In this document: positions 18,976 through 33,260 of the stretch, one piece after another
Layout: the number at the start of each line of letters is the position of its first letter
How positions within the stretch are numbered: the first letter of the stretch is position 1
Source of the DNA: an uncultured delta proteobacterium
GTDB lineage: Bacteria > Desulfobacterota > Binatia > UBA9968
NCBI GenBank assembly: GCA_963728565.1
Contig: CAVSLC010000013.1
Coordinates: 32,001 to 96,000, forward strand
DNA length: 64,000 bases
Direction of reading: 5' to 3'
Made by a program: the position numbers and the translations under genes
Notes under the pieces: generated by a model
What the model was told of the DNA's origin: nothing
Seen by the model: the letters and a program-made list of their open reading frames with translations, nothing else
Databases searched by the model: none

Positions 18976-19785
18976 CTAAGACAAATGCTTCCGGTAGATG
19001 TCGGTTCTGCGGTTCTGCAGGAGCGGCAGCTTTGCGCGGGTGTCGTGAACTAGATTAAAGTCGATCTCAATGATTTCTACGCCTTCTCGCTCGCCAAGAT
19101 CCACTACTGTCCGACCTAACGGATCGACGATCATGCTGCGACCAATGTAGATATTGCCCACCTGATCCGGCGCGATGACGTAGCAGCCGCTTTCGAGAGC
19201 TCGGGCGCGGATCATGGTTTGCCAGTGATCCACTTTCAATTCGCCTTGCACCCAACCAGACGGCGCCAGCAGTATGTTCGCCCCTGATAAGGCCAGCATG
19301 CGCCCCATCTCGGGAAATCGAAGATCATAGCAGATCATCATGCCGTAACAGCCATCCTTGAACGTCACCGGCGGTGTCAGGTCGACGCCAGCGGCAAATT
19401 TGTCGGACTCCCGGAAACCGAAGGCGTCGTACAAGTGCAGCTTGCGGTAAACAGCCGCAATATTGCCCTCAGTATCGATCCACAGAGCGCTGTCGTACAC
19501 ACGATCAGGAATAGAGCAGGTCTCGTAGATCGTCGCTACGATCGCGGTACGCGTTGCTTTAGCCGCTTCCTTCAGTGCTGTTACAAAATAGCCTTGAAGC
19601 GGCTCGGCAACTTGGGCGAGCTCCTTAGCTGTCTGACTGGCCGGTGAAAACGCCATTAAGAATTCGGGAAAGGCAACCAGATCGGCGCCGCCGCTGTTGC
19701 TATCTTTGACCAGCTCGAGAGCTCTGCGTAGATTTTCTCTTTTGTCCGTTGACGACTGGATTTGGACTATGGCCACTTTGCTCAT
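18976..19785 (-). CDS. Carbon-nitrogen hydrolase (Nit1/deaminated glutathione amidase-like)
   Basis: Catalytic triad motifs FPE, YRKLHLYD and ICYDLRFPE. Confidence 0.88.
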   Translation of the reverse strand: MSKVAIVQIQSSTDKRENLRRALELVKDSNSGGADLVAFPEFLMAFSPASQTAKELAQVAEPLQGYFVTALKEAAKATRTAIVATIYETCSIPDRVYDSALWIDTEGNIAAVYRKLHLYDAFGFRESDKFAAGVDLTPPVTFKDGCYGMMICYDLRFPEMGRMLALSGANILLAPSGWVQGELKVDHWQTMIRARALESGCYVIAPDQVGNIYIGRSMIVDPLGRTVVDLGEREGVEIIEIDFNLVHDTRAKLPLLQNRRTDIYRKHLS

Positions 19786-19877
19786 GTGAAATTGCTTTCC
19801 ATTTTCGACTGATAATCAGGATCTTGCAGTCAGGACCAGTCGAGACAAGCTATACTCCTCACGCGTTCCCACCCCCT

Positions 19878-20933
19878 TTACACCTCAAGCTTTTGCCCTG
19901 CCTGTTTTTTCCTTGCTTTCTCCAAAACCAGCGCACCTAGAGCCACATCGGCGACGCCCTGGCCGGCATTGTTCTTGTAGAGACTGATCTGGTCGGCGCG
20001 GGTGCGGCCGTCATCTTGGCCGGCAAGGATGGCGCCGATCTCAATCAACTGTTCCCACTTGATGACGCCGCGGCTGACCGGATCGAAGATATCGGCCTGC
20101 TCGTCCTGGATCGCCTGTTGAACTGAAACGATGCCCCGCACGTGACTGCGCGCGAGGGTGGCGTCATCGATCTCACGCCGTTTGGCGGCGGTAAAGCCGC
20201 CCTTGACCAAACCGACGTTGCTGCCGACGATGGTCGTGACATGCTGGCCTGGCTCGAGCCAATTGCCGTCAAATACCGGAACGCTCGAGTTGGTTGCCGC
20301 TAATATGATGTCTACTCCGCGAACCGCCTCCTGTGGCGACGATACCGGTGTAATGTTGAGATTAGTCAGCGGCCCCATCTCGTCGGCGAAGCGTTTTCGG
20401 TTCTCCGGATTGCGACTATAAACCTTCACATTTTTGAGCTTGCGGACCTGCATGAGCGCGAGCAGGTGGTTTTTTGCCTGACCGGCCGCGCCAAAAATGC
20501 CAAGGGCTGAAGCGTCCTGGCGCGCCAACAAATCAGTCCCCACCGCGCTGGTGGCCGCCGTGCGCAGGCCGGTCACGGCAATGTTGTTGGGCAGCTCCGA
20601 ACAGGTGATCTCACCGATAATGATTCCTTTGAGCTCGCCTTCGGCGGCATCGTAGAGCACGATTACCGGATGGTTGAGCCGCGGATAAACCTGCTCTTCG
20701 GCCATGGGTTTGACCCATTCGCAATGGGTCATCAGGCCAGTGGCTCCCGCTGCCGGGACGCCACCCTGATGCACGCTTACGCGCACACCAGTGGGAATGT
20801 GAATCCGTCGCCGCGGCGCATTTAGCTGAGGATTCTCGCCCCACTGACGAAAACCTGTGCGAACCGCTTCGACGGCTTCGGCCATTGTCACGATACCTCT
20901 GATTTCGTGCGGGCTGACGAGGATGGTTTCCAT
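19878..20933 (-). CDS. Ornithine cyclodeaminase / mu-crystallin family protein
   Basis: TGLRTAATSA, IFGAAGQA, ATNS..PV and G.GVADVA-like motifs. Confidence 0.85.
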   Translation of the reverse strand: METILVSPHEIRGIVTMAEAVEAVRTGFRQWGENPQLNAPRRRIHIPTGVRVSVHQGGVPAAGATGLMTHCEWVKPMAEEQVYPRLNHPVIVLYDAAEGELKGIIIGEITCSELPNNIAVTGLRTAATSAVGTDLLARQDASALGIFGAAGQAKNHLLALMQVRKLKNVKVYSRNPENRKRFADEMGPLTNLNITPVSSPQEAVRGVDIILAATNSSVPVFDGNWLEPGQHVTTIVGSNVGLVKGGFTAAKRREIDDATLARSHVRGIVSVQQAIQDEQADIFDPVSRGVIKWEQLIEIGAILAGQDDGRTRADQISLYKNNAGQGVADVALGALVLEKARKKQAGQKLEV

Positions 20934-20971
20934 CTATTCTCCTATTGGGCTGCGGTTCGAATCAGAGCGCT

Positions 20972-21532
20972 CTACAATGTGCAGGCTACGGCGGGACGGG
21001 CCAGGAGTTCCTCTCCCCAACGCTGTAGGTTCGGATAATTATCGCCGATAGTGACGCCGTATCTTTTGCGCCGCGTATAAAAAGGAATGAAGGAAACATC
21101 GGCCAGCGAATAGTCGCCGAGGATGAAGCGCTTGCCGTTCATTTCGTTTTCGAGGGTACTGAGATGCTGCTGCAGCCGTTGCCGCGCTTGATCGGGCTCT
21201 CGATCGTGGGTGATATCGCTGGCCGCCGGGTGAACGCGACTGTTTAGGAAGTCGATCCAGATCCTCGCTTTGGCCCTTTGCAACGCATTGTTCGGGAGCA
21301 GCGTTAACCCGTTAAATTTTTCATCGAGATACTCGTTGATGATCGCGGATTCGTAAATCACTCCGGCGCCGTCGACAAGCACCGGAACTTTGGCATAGGG
21401 ATTCAGCTCGAGCAAATCCTTCGGTTTGTTTTTCAAATCGACTTCCACGAGCTCATACGAAATCTTCTTTTCAGAAAGGACAATCCTTGTCCTGTGCGCA
21501 TAAGGTCAGGTATGACAGGAATACAGTTGCAC
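20972..21532 (-). CDS. Glutathione S-transferase family selenoprotein (CxxU)
   Basis: SD AAAGGAGGT, then GTG 21532 gives MQLYSCHT-UGA-PYAHRTRIVLSEKKISYEL, in frame with the 20972-21448 ORF (LNPYAKVPVL, YESAIINEYLD). Confidence 0.85.
21477..21493 (-). promoter_or_regulatory. Bacterial SECIS-like hairpin of the GST selenoprotein
   Basis: AGGACAA-GGA-TTGTCCT: perfect 7-bp stem with a G-led loop, 12 nt 3' of the UGA (21506-21508). Confidence 0.7.
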
Positions 21533-21656
21533 GGGATACCTCCTTTGTTGAGGTCCATATCAACTGGGTGCAAATCGTTCAAGTCGTTCAAGCAAAGCAA
21601 ATTGCCGGATAGGCAAATCGAAAGCGCTCATTGTTGCTTGGCGGGTTTGAACGCGT

Positions 21657-22463
21657 TCATCGATTTGCCGATTGAAGCCGATTCTGCAAAGCGTCGCCCA
21701 GCAGATTGAGGCTCAATACCGTAAGCATGATTGCCAAACCCGGGTAAGTTGTCAGATGGGGCGCTACCAGTAGAAATTGCCTCCCTTCGTTCAGCATCGA
21801 ACCCCACGAGGCGGTCGGCGGTTCAACGCCTAAACCTAAAAAGCTCAGACTTCCTTCGGCTGTTATCGCCGCTGCCAGGCCGAAGGTCGCTTGTATGAGA
21901 AGCGGCGGAAGAAGGTTGGGGATTAAATGAAAGATGATGACCCGGGCGGGACTGCAGCCTAGGGCGCGCGCTGCCTGGACATACTCCTGTCCTCTTGAGC
22001 TCAGAATTTCCCCGCGGACCAGCCGCGCGTAACCGGTCCAGCCGATCAGACAGAGCGCAAGGATTACATGATTAAGGCCGGGTCCCAGCAGGGCAGTAAA
22101 AGCGATGGCAAGAAGAATGCCGGGAAACGCCAGAAGAATATCCACGGAGCGCATGAGCAGTTGATCGATCCAGCCGCCGAAATAGCCGGAGACCGAGCCG
22201 ATGAAGAGGCCGATGGAAATCGATACTCCCACGGTACTGATGCCGACCAGGAGGGAGATGCGGCTACCGAATATCGCTCGACTCAATATATCCCGACCGA
22301 GTTTGTCCGTTCCGAGCGGATGATCGGGAGTAAACACCTTCAGGTCATTTCCCAGGTTTTGCCGGTTTGGATTGTACGGCGCGAGATTGGGAGCAAACAT
22401 CGCGCACGCCACTATCAACGCCACTAGCATTCCGCCCACGTAAATCCAGAAATTATTGCTCAT
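21657..22463 (-). CDS. Dpp/Opp ABC transporter permease (DppC-like)
   Basis: HPLGTDKLGRD.LSR, EYVQAARALG and LSFLGLG..PP..SWG motifs. Confidence 0.9.
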   Translation of the reverse strand: MSNNFWIYVGGMLVALIVACAMFAPNLAPYNPNRQNLGNDLKVFTPDHPLGTDKLGRDILSRAIFGSRISLLVGISTVGVSISIGLFIGSVSGYFGGWIDQLLMRSVDILLAFPGILLAIAFTALLGPGLNHVILALCLIGWTGYARLVRGEILSSRGQEYVQAARALGCSPARVIIFHLIPNLLPPLLIQATFGLAAAITAEGSLSFLGLGVEPPTASWGSMLNEGRQFLLVAPHLTTYPGLAIMLTVLSLNLLGDALQNRLQSANR

Positions 22464-23376
22464 AGCTGATGCGAGGATCGACGGCACTGTAAGCAAGGTC
22501 AGTGATAAAATTGACAACGAGATATCCGGTGGCGACAACCAACACACAACCTTGCACGAGCGGATAGTCGCGTGTCTGAATGGCTTGGACGGTGAGCCGG
22601 CCAATTCCAGGCCACGAGAATATCGTTTCGGTAATAATCGAGCCGGCGAGAAGCGAGCCAAACTGCAGGCCGATAATGGATATCACCGGTATCAAGGCAT
22701 TGCGCAGCATGTGTTTCAACCAAACTACCGGCTCGCCAAGTCCCTTGGCGCGGGCGGTCTTAATAAAATCCAAGTTGACGATGCGCAGGAGGCTGGTGCG
22801 CAGAATGCGCGTAAGGATGGCCGCCATCGCCATTCCCAATGTGAGCGAGGGCAAAATCAGGTGTGCAAAGCCGCCGCGGCCGGAGACCGGCAGCCAGCCG
22901 AGTTGAATCGAAACCAGTATCATCAGCATTGGGCCCAACCAGAAGTTTGGTATTGAAAGCCCCAGAAGAGAAAAAAACAGCGCTAAACGGTCAATCCAAG
23001 AGTCGGGTTTAAGAGCGGCGAGTGTCGCAAGCGGAAATGCAATGACGAATGCGGCGATCATGGCGCAGATCGTCAGTTGGAACGTGGCCGGCAGCCGCGC
23101 AGCAATGAGTTTGCTAACTTCGGCGTTCTCGTAAAGAGAATATCCCAGATCCCCGCGCGATATATCGACGAGAAATCCGGTGTAACGAGTCAGCAGAGGC
23201 TGATCGAGACCGAGCTGGCGGCGTAGTTCTTCTTTGTCCGCGGCATTGGCGGTCTCCCCAAGCATCACTTCTACCGGATCTCCGGGAACAAGATTGATCA
23301 GGAAAAAAACCAACGTCAATGCGCCCAATAGTGTCGGAAGCAACAACAGCAGTCGATTTACAAAGTATCGCTTCAC
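22453..23376 (-). CDS. Dpp/Opp ABC transporter permease (DppB-like)
   Basis: PGDP, TARAKGL, LRNALIP and ETIFSWPGIG motifs; GTG start overlaps the stop of the binding-protein gene. Confidence 0.9.
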   Translation of the reverse strand: MKRYFVNRLLLLLPTLLGALTLVFFLINLVPGDPVEVMLGETANAADKEELRRQLGLDQPLLTRYTGFLVDISRGDLGYSLYENAEVSKLIAARLPATFQLTICAMIAAFVIAFPLATLAALKPDSWIDRLALFFSLLGLSIPNFWLGPMLMILVSIQLGWLPVSGRGGFAHLILPSLTLGMAMAAILTRILRTSLLRIVNLDFIKTARAKGLGEPVVWLKHMLRNALIPVISIIGLQFGSLLAGSIITETIFSWPGIGRLTVQAIQTRDYPLVQGCVLVVATGYLVVNFITDLAYSAVDPRISYEQ

Positions 23377-24956
23377 TGGAGGTGTGGCGCCTGGCGGAGT
23401 GATGAGCGTCTCAACGAGAACAAATCGCCATCCGGAGAAGGCGTAAAGCCAACAATCTCGGGCTTGCGCACGATTACGTTCTTCACCCACCACAGCGGAA
23501 TATACGGTAGATCTTCATGGATTATGTGCTGCACCTGGTGGTACAGTCCTTTTCGTCGTTCCGGATCAGACTCCCGCCGGCCCTGTTCGAGCAAGTCATC
23601 AATCCTAGGATTATTATATCCGCCGCGATTATCGCCGTTAGGAGGCAAACTCGATGAATGGAAGATGTTGTAATAGACGTCTGGGTCAGCTATGCCGACC
23701 CAAGCGAGCGAGTAAAGATGGAAGTTGCCTTTCTTGATATCGCTGTAAAACGTTCCCCACTCATAAGAGCGCACTTCGAGCTCGATGCCGACGCGGCTTA
23801 ATTGCTCTTTCAACGCTTCGGCAATTCTTCTGCGCAGATCGATGTTCGTGGTCTTAAAAGATAGCCTGAAGCGCGGCCGCGGACCGTCTCCATCGGGATC
23901 CGGATACCCCGCCTGGTCCAAGAGCCGCCGGGCTTTGGCGGGATCAAAAGGCCAACGCGGAACAGAGTCGTCGTGTGCCCAGTTAAGCGGCGACAGCAGC
24001 CCACTGGCTGCTGTCGCCTGGTCTTTGAGGATGTGCCGGATGATGCCGTCCCGATCGATGGAGTAGGCCAATGCCAGCCTGACCTCTCGGCGCTTCAGTA
24101 TGGGATGCGTAAGATTTATGCCGATGTACTGAAACGTAGTTCCCGGGTTTGTCTCGACGATTGCATCGGTATTCTTTACCAGCCATGGAAGAGTGTCGGG
24201 TTCGATATCGTTCTGCAAAAGCTGGATGGTTCCTTTTTTGAACTCTAGAACTCGAACGATGGCATCAGGCACAATTTGAAACGCCAGTCCCGCCAAGCGA
24301 GGTTTGCCCTCCCAGTAGGATGAGTTTGCTTTCAGGTACACTTTCTCTCCCAAATTTATCCCTGCCAGAGCAAATGGACCGGAACCGGGTGGTGCCTGAT
24401 CACTGCGATTCTCCCCCGGCCTCTCACTGTCAACTGGTACTATCCCAATCGTGCAGTGCTCAAGAAAAGGCGCGTGCGGCTCGGATAGATGAAAGCGGAT
24501 CTTTTGCGTTCCTAGCTGCTCAACGGATCTTAGAACCCGCAGAGGCCCGCGTTTCGGCGAACGATTGCGACGATCCATGATCGAATCATAGGTAAACTTG
24601 ACGTCCCGGGCTGTCAGGGCTCTGCCGTCGTGGAAGGTGACTCTGCTACGAATTTGGAAGTCATAGGTTTGTGCATCGATTACCGTCCACTGTTCGGCGA
24701 GGTCTCCTACCAAGCGCGATCTCTCATCCAGGCGAAGAAGCGAACTATAGATTAACGAGCTGATGCGGGCAGAGTTTGCGTCGGTAGCATAGCGAGGATC
24801 TAGATTGCCAGGGGTGCTCTCGATTCCAATTCCCAAATAGTCTAAAGGGGTTTTGGTTTCGGGTCCAGCCCTACAGCCGGTAAGTAGTAAGGTGACGATG
24901 ATCGTCCGTAAGCACAAGCGACAAACTTTCGAAGCAGACAACTTGAAAAGTCTCAC
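23373..24956 (-). CDS. Family 5 ABC substrate-binding lipoprotein (DppA/OppA-like)
   Basis: Lipobox LTGC; LDPR, LAE.W, FHDG..LTA.DV and GSGPF motifs. Confidence 0.9.
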   Translation of the reverse strand: MRLFKLSASKVCRLCLRTIIVTLLLTGCRAGPETKTPLDYLGIGIESTPGNLDPRYATDANSARISSLIYSSLLRLDERSRLVGDLAEQWTVIDAQTYDFQIRSRVTFHDGRALTARDVKFTYDSIMDRRNRSPKRGPLRVLRSVEQLGTQKIRFHLSEPHAPFLEHCTIGIVPVDSERPGENRSDQAPPGSGPFALAGINLGEKVYLKANSSYWEGKPRLAGLAFQIVPDAIVRVLEFKKGTIQLLQNDIEPDTLPWLVKNTDAIVETNPGTTFQYIGINLTHPILKRREVRLALAYSIDRDGIIRHILKDQATAASGLLSPLNWAHDDSVPRWPFDPAKARRLLDQAGYPDPDGDGPRPRFRLSFKTTNIDLRRRIAEALKEQLSRVGIELEVRSYEWGTFYSDIKKGNFHLYSLAWVGIADPDVYYNIFHSSSLPPNGDNRGGYNNPRIDDLLEQGRRESDPERRKGLYHQVQHIIHEDLPYIPLWWVKNVIVRKPEIVGFTPSPDGDLFSLRRSSLRQAPHLQ

Positions 24957-25147: not shown

Positions 25148-25175
25148 TTGAAGGTCGGAGAGGTTAGCTTATAAT
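25148..25175 (+). promoter_or_regulatory. sigma70-type promoter candidate for the ccsA-hem operon
   Basis: TTGAAG-N16-TATAAT. It overlaps ATG 25174, so ATG 25186 may be the real start. Confidence 0.45.
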
Positions 25176-32518: not shown

Positions 32519-33121
32519 TTAGAGAATCGCCTTGATCGCGGATCGTTGTTTCATTCGCTCGACATAGCTTGCCAGCCGCGGCAGCGACTTATCCGGCAGT
32601 ACGCCGAACCCTTCGAGCCGAAGAAAACGGGGAATCAGGGCTGCGTCCGCAAGTGAAAAATCTCCTACCAAGTAAGGTTGATCGCCGATCTCATTCTCCA
32701 GTCTTTGCAGCATTTTTCTAAGCTCGGTCTGGGCCTCCGTAATCACGTCCTTATTTTGTTCCTTCTCGTCTTTCACCATTTCCATGCGTAGTTTTTGATA
32801 TTGACCCTCCAGGTGGGTTAATCCGTAATCGGTCAAGATGCGAGCTTTGGCTTTTTTAGCGGGATCCTGCGGCATGAGGGGAGGCGTTGAATATTTATCG
32901 TCAAGGTATTCATTGATGATACAGGATTCATACAACACCGTGTCGCCGTCGGTGACGACGGGGACTTTCCCATTTGGATTCAGTTTGAGGAATTCAGGCG
33001 TTTTTTGCGCATGCGCTCTCAGGTCAACGGGAACTGTTTCGTAAGGCAGATTTTTTTCCGCCAGGACAACCCGCACCCGCTGGCAATTAGGTGACGACTT
33101 AAAATCATAGAGCTTGATCAT
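32519..33121 (-). CDS. Glutathione S-transferase family protein (SPNC motif)
   Basis: MIKLYDFKSSPNCQRVRVVL, LNPNGKVP, YESCIINEYLD and FSLAD motifs. Confidence 0.9.
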   Translation of the reverse strand: MIKLYDFKSSPNCQRVRVVLAEKNLPYETVPVDLRAHAQKTPEFLKLNPNGKVPVVTDGDTVLYESCIINEYLDDKYSTPPLMPQDPAKKAKARILTDYGLTHLEGQYQKLRMEMVKDEKEQNKDVITEAQTELRKMLQRLENEIGDQPYLVGDFSLADAALIPRFLRLEGFGVLPDKSLPRLASYVERMKQRSAIKAIL

Positions 33122-33260
33122 TGTCTGTCCTTTCAAGACCAGGATTGATACCGAACTTATACTGAGATTCTGTTTAAACGCAAAGGCGAAGTCGAAAACT
33201 CGCTTGATATGGCTAATCTTTGATGTTAAGCGGATAGCGATTGGCCGGAGTTTTTTTCCG

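Follow-up and report, generated by a model that had tools for sequence, protein, structure and literature searches.

A conserved in-frame UGA, probably read as selenocysteine, at the catalytic position of a glutathione S-transferase-fold protein from one order of Candidatus Binatia

The stretch of DNA under study (the window) comprises 64,000 nucleotides of an uncultured delta proteobacterium of the class Binatia (assembly GCA_963728565.1, contig CAVSLC010000013.1, positions 32,001 to 96,000), and its minus strand carries a gene that appears to encode a selenocysteine (Sec)-containing protein with the fold of a glutathione S-transferase (GST). We refer to it as Sec-GST; all coordinates given for the gene, its codons and its hairpin are window positions on the minus strand. 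When translated through a single in-frame TGA, the coding sequence (20972-21532) has 186 codons and ends at a TAG stop (20974-20972). Reading of the sequence places a Shine-Dalgarno site, AAAGGAGGT, at 21546-21538, followed after a 5-nucleotide (nt) spacer by the GTG start codon of the full-length gene (21532-21530). Comparison of upstream sequences indicates that a GGAGG-like site is kept at the equivalent place in most orthologs, and the start column of the 125 distinct ortholog sequences holds ATG in 85 and GTG in 11, most of the others having ATG one codon upstream. The N-terminus reads M/V-Q-L-Y-S-C-H-T, TGA, P-Y-A-H-R-T-R-I-V-L, after which the frame is open to the TAG. Within it, a TGT at 21517-21515 specifies Cys6, the subclade-specific Cys of a C-x-x-U arrangement; the TGA is codon 9 (21508-21506), identified by ortholog conservation as the presumptive Sec codon at the catalytic position (U-P-Y); and a 17-nt hairpin, AGGACAA-GGA-UUGUCCU (21493-21477), which its folding and frozen codons mark as a putative bacterial selenocysteine insertion sequence (SECIS), follows directly.

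A mechanical list of open reading frames (ORFs) reports only a shortened, 158-residue ORF that begins at GTG 21448 (20972-21448) and is missing the opening part of the GST N-terminal domain (strand 1, helix 1 and the catalytic residue between them). The initial annotation, made from the letters alone, had pointed out that this ORF begins in the middle of a GST domain, that a strong Shine-Dalgarno site, GTG 21532 and MQLYSCHT-UGA-PYAHRTRIVL lie upstream in the same frame, and that standard pipelines would truncate such a gene. We found the features as described, and the last expectation is borne out by the databases: 118 of the 120 best protein matches cover at most 90% of the query, and only two, both Cys forms, are full length.

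We propose that Sec is inserted at UGA codon 9, the catalytic position of a GST-fold protein, under the direction of the hairpin; from sequence comparison we put the probability of this reading at roughly 0.93. The central claim of the initial annotation is thereby upheld, and what upholds it is a conserved TGA/Cys column at the catalytic Cys position, a hairpin frozen among relatives, and Sec machinery in the genome.

Orthologs were sought by six-frame search in 61 genomes of the same order (Candidatus Binatia), and 56 of them hold one (53-93% identity) with exactly one TGA; leaving out two unpublished genomes among the 56, G012 and G018, gives 54 of 59. The five genomes without a TGA-form match are G010, G031, G033, G035 and G048, the G010 copy ending at a contig end before the N-terminus. 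When 162 ortholog loci were pooled and reduced to 126 distinct N-terminal DNA sequences, codon 9 was TGA in 125 (one of these from the unpublished G012) and TGT, for Cys, in the remaining one (L049 = L109). With a Cys form, P0006, as the query, TGA was still present in 79 of 80 metagenome loci. The full-length database homologs carry Cys at the TGA column, in the contexts S-S-R-G-C-P-Y-A-H-R (P0006) and S-S-Q-S-C-P-Y-A-H-R (P0015), so the column holds both of the states, conserved TGA and Cys, that the initial annotation had expected of orthologs. As for the chance, raised there as well, that the codon is in truth TGC or TGT, G001 and G004-G006, which were assembled independently and belong to the same genus, carry the identical TGA, and because it recurs in this way sequencing error is ruled out as its source. 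The codons upstream of the TGA also act as coding sequence. Leu3 is invariant and is spelled with six codons, Ser5 (118 of 125) is spelled with four, and over the whole run of 28 codons before 21448 the 125 distinct sequences preserve the protein while varying synonymously.

The Cys forms are informative in their own right. A quick maximum-likelihood tree of 131 proteins, built with the Sec/Cys column masked, nests three Cys rows among 128 Sec rows, and its well-supported branches require at least two Sec/Cys changes. Occasional replacement of Sec by Cys is the natural reading of this tree, although the tree is unrooted and the direction of change would follow only by inference. That Cys forms are rare and nested among Sec forms suggests that Sec is actively maintained. 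The loci L049 (genome_contigs) and L109 (metagenome_contigs) are the sole Cys-form DNA found; their nearest relatives are Sec forms with 89-91% identity, and the genes around L049 are those that flank the Sec forms.

The genome is equipped for Sec insertion. The initial annotation had advised a search for selA, selB, selC and selD; selA (607 bits), selB (396 bits) and selD (382 bits), all above curated cut-offs, lie side by side on contig C28, and ARAGORN locates a tRNA-SeC with anticodon tca on contig C25. The selA/selB/selD cluster lies outside the window (G000 C28:34981-39495; L001, L003 and L010). TGA is also the commonest stop in the genome, and since it terminates 438 of 1009 long open frames the code is standard and TGA is not reassigned; a reassigned genetic code is thereby ruled out. 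The Sec trait is widespread in the class Binatia: selA exceeds its cut-off in 242 of 301 class genomes (two of the 242 unpublished), across all 20 families. We also observe that selD is itself a selenoprotein gene: its own frame contains a TGA (VKAAG-TGA-AAKLGPADL), and downstream of that codon comes a hairpin, GACCUCGUGCAA-GUU-UUGCACGGUC, whose apex, CAA-Gxx-UUG, resembles that of the Sec-GST hairpin.

The hairpin noted in the initial annotation is present at 21493-21477 as a perfect 7-bp stem with a 3-nt, G-led loop, starting 12 nt past the TGA. Among the 125 Sec forms its codons are nearly frozen: Arg14 is AGG in 114 and CGG in 11; Thr15 is ACA in 113, ACT in 11 and ACG in one; Arg16 is AGG and Val18 is GTC in all 125; and residue 17, Ile or Leu, is ATT in 97, CTT in 26, and ATA and ATC in one each. 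The third base of Leu19 is free. Invariant residues outside the hairpin vary in codon (Pro10 and Ala12 with four codons each, Glu21 divided 83/42 and Lys22 67/58). The frozen choices include the rarest codons for their amino acids in this genome, AGG for Arg (5.8%) and ACA for Thr (11.8%), and the probability of AGG-ACA-AGG-ATT-GTC, given R-T-R-I-V, is 4e-5 under genome codon usage. The Cys-form DNA (L049 = L109) spells H-R-T-R-I-V-L as CAC AGA ACA CGA ATC GTC CTG; its four nucleotide differences from the usual Sec-form hairpin abolish the stem, which cannot form, and leave the amino acids unchanged. Compensatory changes occur at one pair, where A-U has become G-C in L069 and U-A in L060. Over 105 distinct sequences, 95.5% of hairpin cells are paired, compared with 26-51% when the partner columns are slid, and the genome has just two copies of the core motif, each following the TGA of one Sec-GST paralog. 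Taken together, these comparisons indicate a stem-loop directly 3′ of the UGA that is apparently under selection as RNA.

The read-through protein (P0001) was analysed with U written as C. The Pfam models GST_N_3 (PF13417, 78 bits, residues 3-75), GST_N_2 (PF13409, 77.8 bits), GST_N and GST_C (residues 108-180) all match it above their cut-offs, and since the GST_N_3 match spans residues 3-75 the domain includes the TGA position. A Pfam Glutaredoxin match (30 bits, residues 1-53) is a reflection of the shared thioredoxin fold. AlphaFold2, given 27 aligned sequences, produced a model with a GST fold and a predicted local distance difference test (pLDDT) score of 94.7; strand 1 spans residues 2-5 and helix 1 residues 10-21, which puts residue 9 directly before helix 1. 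The best solved structures by Foldseek are GSTs, with template modelling (TM) scores of 0.87-0.93 normalised to the model, and include the Neisseria RegF-like protein 4hoj, Tau-class GSTs and the Burkholderia SspA-like proteins 6v91 and 4qq7. By sequence, the best matches in the PDB are the SspA/RegF-like proteins 6v91 (2.3e-33), 4qq7 and 4hoj (E from 2e-33 to 2e-31), in all of which the TGA aligns with the Cys of T-C-P-F-S; Tau GSTs rank next and then human GSTO1 (1eem; E 1.4e-23 over residues 1-184), with scores of 118 bits for SspA-like, 97 for Tau and 87 for Omega. These alignments show Sec9 in the place of the catalytic Cys of Cys-type GSTs (Omega, Lambda, DHAR) and of Cys-bearing SspA-like proteins. 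Elsewhere in the alignment of Sec-GSTs, K48, P50, E61 and S62 are invariant and V49 is nearly so; we take the V-P (with its cis-proline) and E-S pairs to be glutathione-site residues.

One detail of the initial annotation does not survive comparison. It had described the active site as a glutaredoxin-like CxxU, and the glutaredoxin motif is C-P-Y-C. By homology to the C-P-F/Y of Omega and SspA-like GSTs, the presumed Sec replaces the first Cys of that motif; position +3 from Sec, where a dithiol glutaredoxin has its second Cys, within the first turn of helix 1, holds an invariant Ala (A12). The residue at -3 from Sec varies among the 125 distinct sequences (Cys, 46; Ser, 48; Tyr, 28), the common forms being C-H-T-U, S-H-G-U and Y-G-P-U. 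With Cys at -3 in only 46 of 125, Sec at the place of the first Cys and Ala at +3, C-x-x-U is a subclade feature that lies out of register with glutaredoxin. A resolving role for Cys6 is possible.

In the window, Sec-GST is part of an apparent operon on the minus strand (18976-24956). Upstream of it lie genes for the substrate-binding protein (23373-24956) and two permeases (22453-23493 and 21657-22661) of an Opp/Dpp/Nik/Gsi-type ABC importer, and downstream lie genes for an ornithine cyclodeaminase (OCD)/mu-crystallin family protein (19878-20933) and a Nit-type C-N hydrolase, Nit1-like (18976-19785). The apparent operon holds no ABC ATPase gene. The next gene upstream of the importer, at 25174 on the plus strand, is divergent and ccsB-like. 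Among the NCBIfam models matching the importer, only that of the Opp2B nickel permease reaches its cut-off (the 22453-23493 permease, 350.2 against 350 bits), and all others, GsiB, GsiC and GsiD included, fall below theirs; for the hydrolase, the deaminated glutathione amidase model ranks first in NCBIfam, its 228.7 bits falling short of the 355-bit cut-off. Synteny was compared over 53 ortholog loci in genome_contigs (L042-L094), several of which end at contig ends. A permease accompanies Sec-GST in 26 of the 53, followed in frequency by the OCD-family gene in 16 and the Nit-type hydrolase in nine.

The orthologs fall into two groups, type 1, which includes the window gene and lies downstream of importer genes, and type 2, which has the Y-G-P-U form and no importer context. 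The type 2 paralog in this genome (G000 C10:330629-331180, plus strand; L189) begins MKLFSYGP-TGA-PYAHRTRLVL, is 54% identical to the window gene, shares the hairpin, here with a C in its loop, and is some 800 bases away from the end of the contig. Genes near type 2 on G000 C10 and at L065 encode UbiD-like, NMT1-like binding, glyoxalase, amidohydrolase and response regulator proteins, and at L065 also an ABC ATPase with no other Pfam match; we found no common theme among the neighbours at these two places. A third GST paralog in the window (32519-33130, minus strand), 39% identical and without an internal stop, has Ser-Ser-Pro (MIKLYDFKSSPNCQRV) at the catalytic position, which makes it a Ser-type GST, and most related genomes also have copies. 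Sec-GST itself was detected in 45 of 301 class genomes sampled, all in three families of one order, and in none of the 251 genomes of 17 other families of the class (0/251). It thus appears, as far as sequence can tell, to be a near-universal, duplicated selenoprotein of one Binatia order, with two paralogs per genome.

RNA libraries contribute some coverage. At least 20 sequencing runs have matches, six of those listed being RNA libraries with small word shares. Contigs of four metatranscriptome runs from four studies were aligned to the gene; RNA libraries may contain DNA, and such contigs are evidence of neither transcription, translation nor Sec. Such contigs cover Sec-GST in all four runs, and in three (X15, X16 and X19) they continue past the TGA to 21528-21533 at 88-99% likeness, which is 20-25 letters beyond the TGA and below the 31 needed to count as bridging. 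Among the contig rows listed, there is no change at 21506-21508. At the start codon (21528-21533) the contigs of three RNA libraries end and that of the fourth begins; this break at about 21532 is most likely the result of intergenic DNA divergence and not an RNA 5′ end.

Several observations weigh against reading the UGA as hairpin-directed Sec in a GST enzyme. The folding energy of the 66-nt hairpin stretch is unremarkable by itself (z = -1.59; 13 of 200 shuffles fold equally well), so the case must rest on comparison with relatives. Covariation is weak: two-sided change is seen in two of 840 cells, 42 of 500 shuffles reach the score, and a U-U mismatch stands in 10 sequences at the very pair where L069 and L060 compensate. 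The covariation fails to reach significance over the 105 distinct sequences because the hairpin hardly varies, and for this reason the evidence for an RNA element lies in frozen synonymous sites tied to the TGA, not in compensatory changes. A scan of 21300-21700 against Rfam, with E up to 10, gave three chance matches far below gathering scores. On the protein side, no NCBIfam model reaches its cut-off with Sec-GST; the best family, SspA (NF007016), scores 105.8 bits against a cut-off of 314, and the selenoprotein-aware Uxx-star glutaredoxin models match weakly, at 28 bits against a cut-off of 66. Finally, the nearest solved proteins are SspA/RegF-like, some of which act as transcription factors and not as enzymes; catalysis by Sec-GST is therefore something that we can only infer. 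Set against the first of these points, conservation of the TGA in 125 of 126 orthologs, together with the frozen synonymous sites, is what lifts the hairpin beyond what chance would be expected to yield.

One alternative to Sec is that the TGA is a true stop, in which case the part upstream would be a dead remnant, or else encode a tiny leader peptide, and the functional product would be the 158-residue protein from GTG 21448. Translation with table 11 yields exactly that ORF, the same annotation is found for 118 of the 120 best database proteins, and no stop is commoner in the genome. Such a product would, however, begin only after helix 1, and so be without strand 1 and the catalytic residue as well, in a domain whose GST_N_3 match spans residues 3-75. 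The Shine-Dalgarno site and start codon stand upstream of the TGA and not of 21448, the 28 codons before 21448 vary synonymously in 125 distinct sequences as those of a protein do, and the Cys forms read straight through at the TGA column. A true stop thus appears already disfavoured by the pattern of conservation, and we regard it as extremely unlikely. Read-through without Sec, by a near-cognate Trp or Cys tRNA or a reassigned code, with the hairpin as a pause or a stimulator, has in its favour that downstream structures stimulate stop-codon read-through in other systems, but TGA terminates 438 of 1009 long frames under a standard code, and a full set of Sec machinery is at hand. The place of the hairpin, its 12-nt spacing and the G in its apical loop fit a bacterial SECIS. 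Moreover, the codon occupies a redox-active Cys position at which Cys is the sole alternative, and a Sec/Cys pair of this kind is the signature by which selenoproteins are defined in the Sargasso Sea study (PMC1088965). On these grounds we consider non-Sec read-through very unlikely.

A different kind of alternative grants the Sec and disputes the enzyme: the protein could be a Sec-containing SspA/RegF-type regulator, bound to RNA polymerase or another partner, in which Sec serves as a redox sensor. The best PDB sequence matches (6v91 at 2.3e-33, 4qq7 and 4hoj) are of this type and also rank among the best folds, and SspA is the best NCBIfam family. Yet the SspA score of 105.8 bits is far from the cut-off of 314, the presumed glutathione-site residues are invariant, and 4hoj and 4qq7 were themselves crystallised with glutathione, according to their entry titles. 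The gene lies between ABC-importer genes and two genes for small-molecule enzymes, and an sspB-type neighbour, the usual arrangement, was not seen among the nearby ORFs scanned. The retention of so costly a residue in 125 of 126 sequences would also argue for catalysis. We give a purely regulatory protein only a small chance.

If the UGA is read as Sec, translation would start at GTG 21532, the 17-nt hairpin 12 nt 3′ of UGA codon 9 would recruit SelB with Sec-tRNA(Sec), and selenocysteine would be inserted instead of termination. By analogy with its relatives, Sec-GST is most likely a glutathione-dependent thiol-transferase or reductase, acting in deglutathionylation and not in conjugation. 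In such a reaction an Se-S adduct would form when the selenolate attacks a disulfide or S-glutathionyl substrate, to be resolved afterwards by glutathione or, in the subclade of the window gene, possibly by Cys6. One may speculate further that, within this subclade, Sec9 and Cys6 (C-H-T-U-P-Y) join in an intramolecular selenenylsulfide, a redox centre of two residues out of register with CPYC, and that this centre supplies the redox step of a conserved operon whose importer, Sec-GST, OCD/mu-crystallin-type reductase and Nit1-like hydrolase would take up peptides that are S-conjugated or derived from glutathione, for salvage or detoxification, in soil Binatia. We think this combined proposal unlikely. 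Were it true, the role of the operon in handling glutathione peptides would be the first physiological role for any GST-like selenoprotein, and the conserved operon context offers a testable lead that could yield a first function for one.

The finding leaves knowledge of recoding and of GST chemistry unchanged. What is new here is a large, order-restricted, duplicated soil clade that has been systematically mis-annotated: hundreds of database entries for Sec-GST are shortened to 136-170 residues and lack the active site, and the family is not captured by any model in NCBIfam. A simple signature for correcting these annotations is the frozen 17-nt hairpin in combination with U-P-Y-A-H-R-T-R.

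Comparison with known systems places Sec-GST as follows. Like the bacterial SECIS of, for example, E. coli fdhF, its hairpin lies inside the coding sequence, 12 nt past the UGA, with a G in the apical loop, the placement, spacing and loop base being the features familiar from E. coli; it differs in being very short (7-8 bp with a 3-nt loop) and nearly invariant. With the Omega and other Cys-type GSTs (GSTO1/2, Lambda, DHAR), which are thiol-transferases and reductases, Sec-GST shares the position of the nucleophile, in C-P-F/Y before helix 1, which aligns with Sec9 and is Cys in those enzymes, and with the Omega GSTs it shares the conserved motifs KNKP, NP..KVP and YES. It has no N-terminal extension (eight residues precede Sec, and GSTO1 aligns from its residue 24), is 186 residues long against about 240 for Omega, and is less similar to Omega than to SspA-like and Tau GSTs. 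Sec therefore stands at the catalytic position that characterises the Omega class, whereas the extension, the length and the closest similarity are not those of that class. The SspA/RegF-like GSTs of Betaproteobacteria (6v91, 4qq7, 4hoj) are the best relatives by sequence and among the best by fold, and two of them, 4hoj and 4qq7, have been solved with glutathione bound, as their entry titles state; identity over the fold alignment is about 34%, the residue is Cys and not Sec, and the gene context is another. The score of Sec-GST with the SspA model (NF007016) is far below the cut-off.

The closest precedent is a family already in the literature, and the hidden selenoprotein of the initial annotation is accordingly not a new class. 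GST was listed as a new selenoprotein family, with four sequences, in the Sargasso Sea study of Zhang, Fomenko and Gladyshev in 2005 (PMC1088965), whose supplement gives AACY01041448 and AACY01575427 with u-P-W and u-P-Y and TGA at codons 13 and 12, respectively; 12 GST selenoproteins followed in the GOS study of 2008 (PMC2398784). The reviews of 2022 (PMC9312934) and 2026 (PMC13188914) carry a "GST-like" selenoprotein family with no redox motif ("-"), and the latter describes such families as largely uncharacterised. Within the literature that we could search, which leaves most subscription journals outside, nothing was found among the papers listed that links Binatia or Binatota with selenocysteine or selenoproteins, the one Binatota paper among them to contain the word selenocysteine having it solely in the title of a reference. 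The marine family shares with the window gene a GST fold (COG0625 / PF13409), a single N-terminal Sec, and the placing of that Sec at the catalytic Cys position, within U-P-W or U-P-Y; it has widespread Cys homologs and was found by bioinformatics only. From this motif, which was compared by eye, the window gene appears to belong to the GST-like kind of selenoprotein already described. It differs from the marine sequences in coming from soil Candidatus Binatia and in being restricted to one order, in having two paralogs per genome and a nearly invariant 17-nt hairpin, and in carrying Cys at -3 (C-x-x-U) in about a third of its clade.

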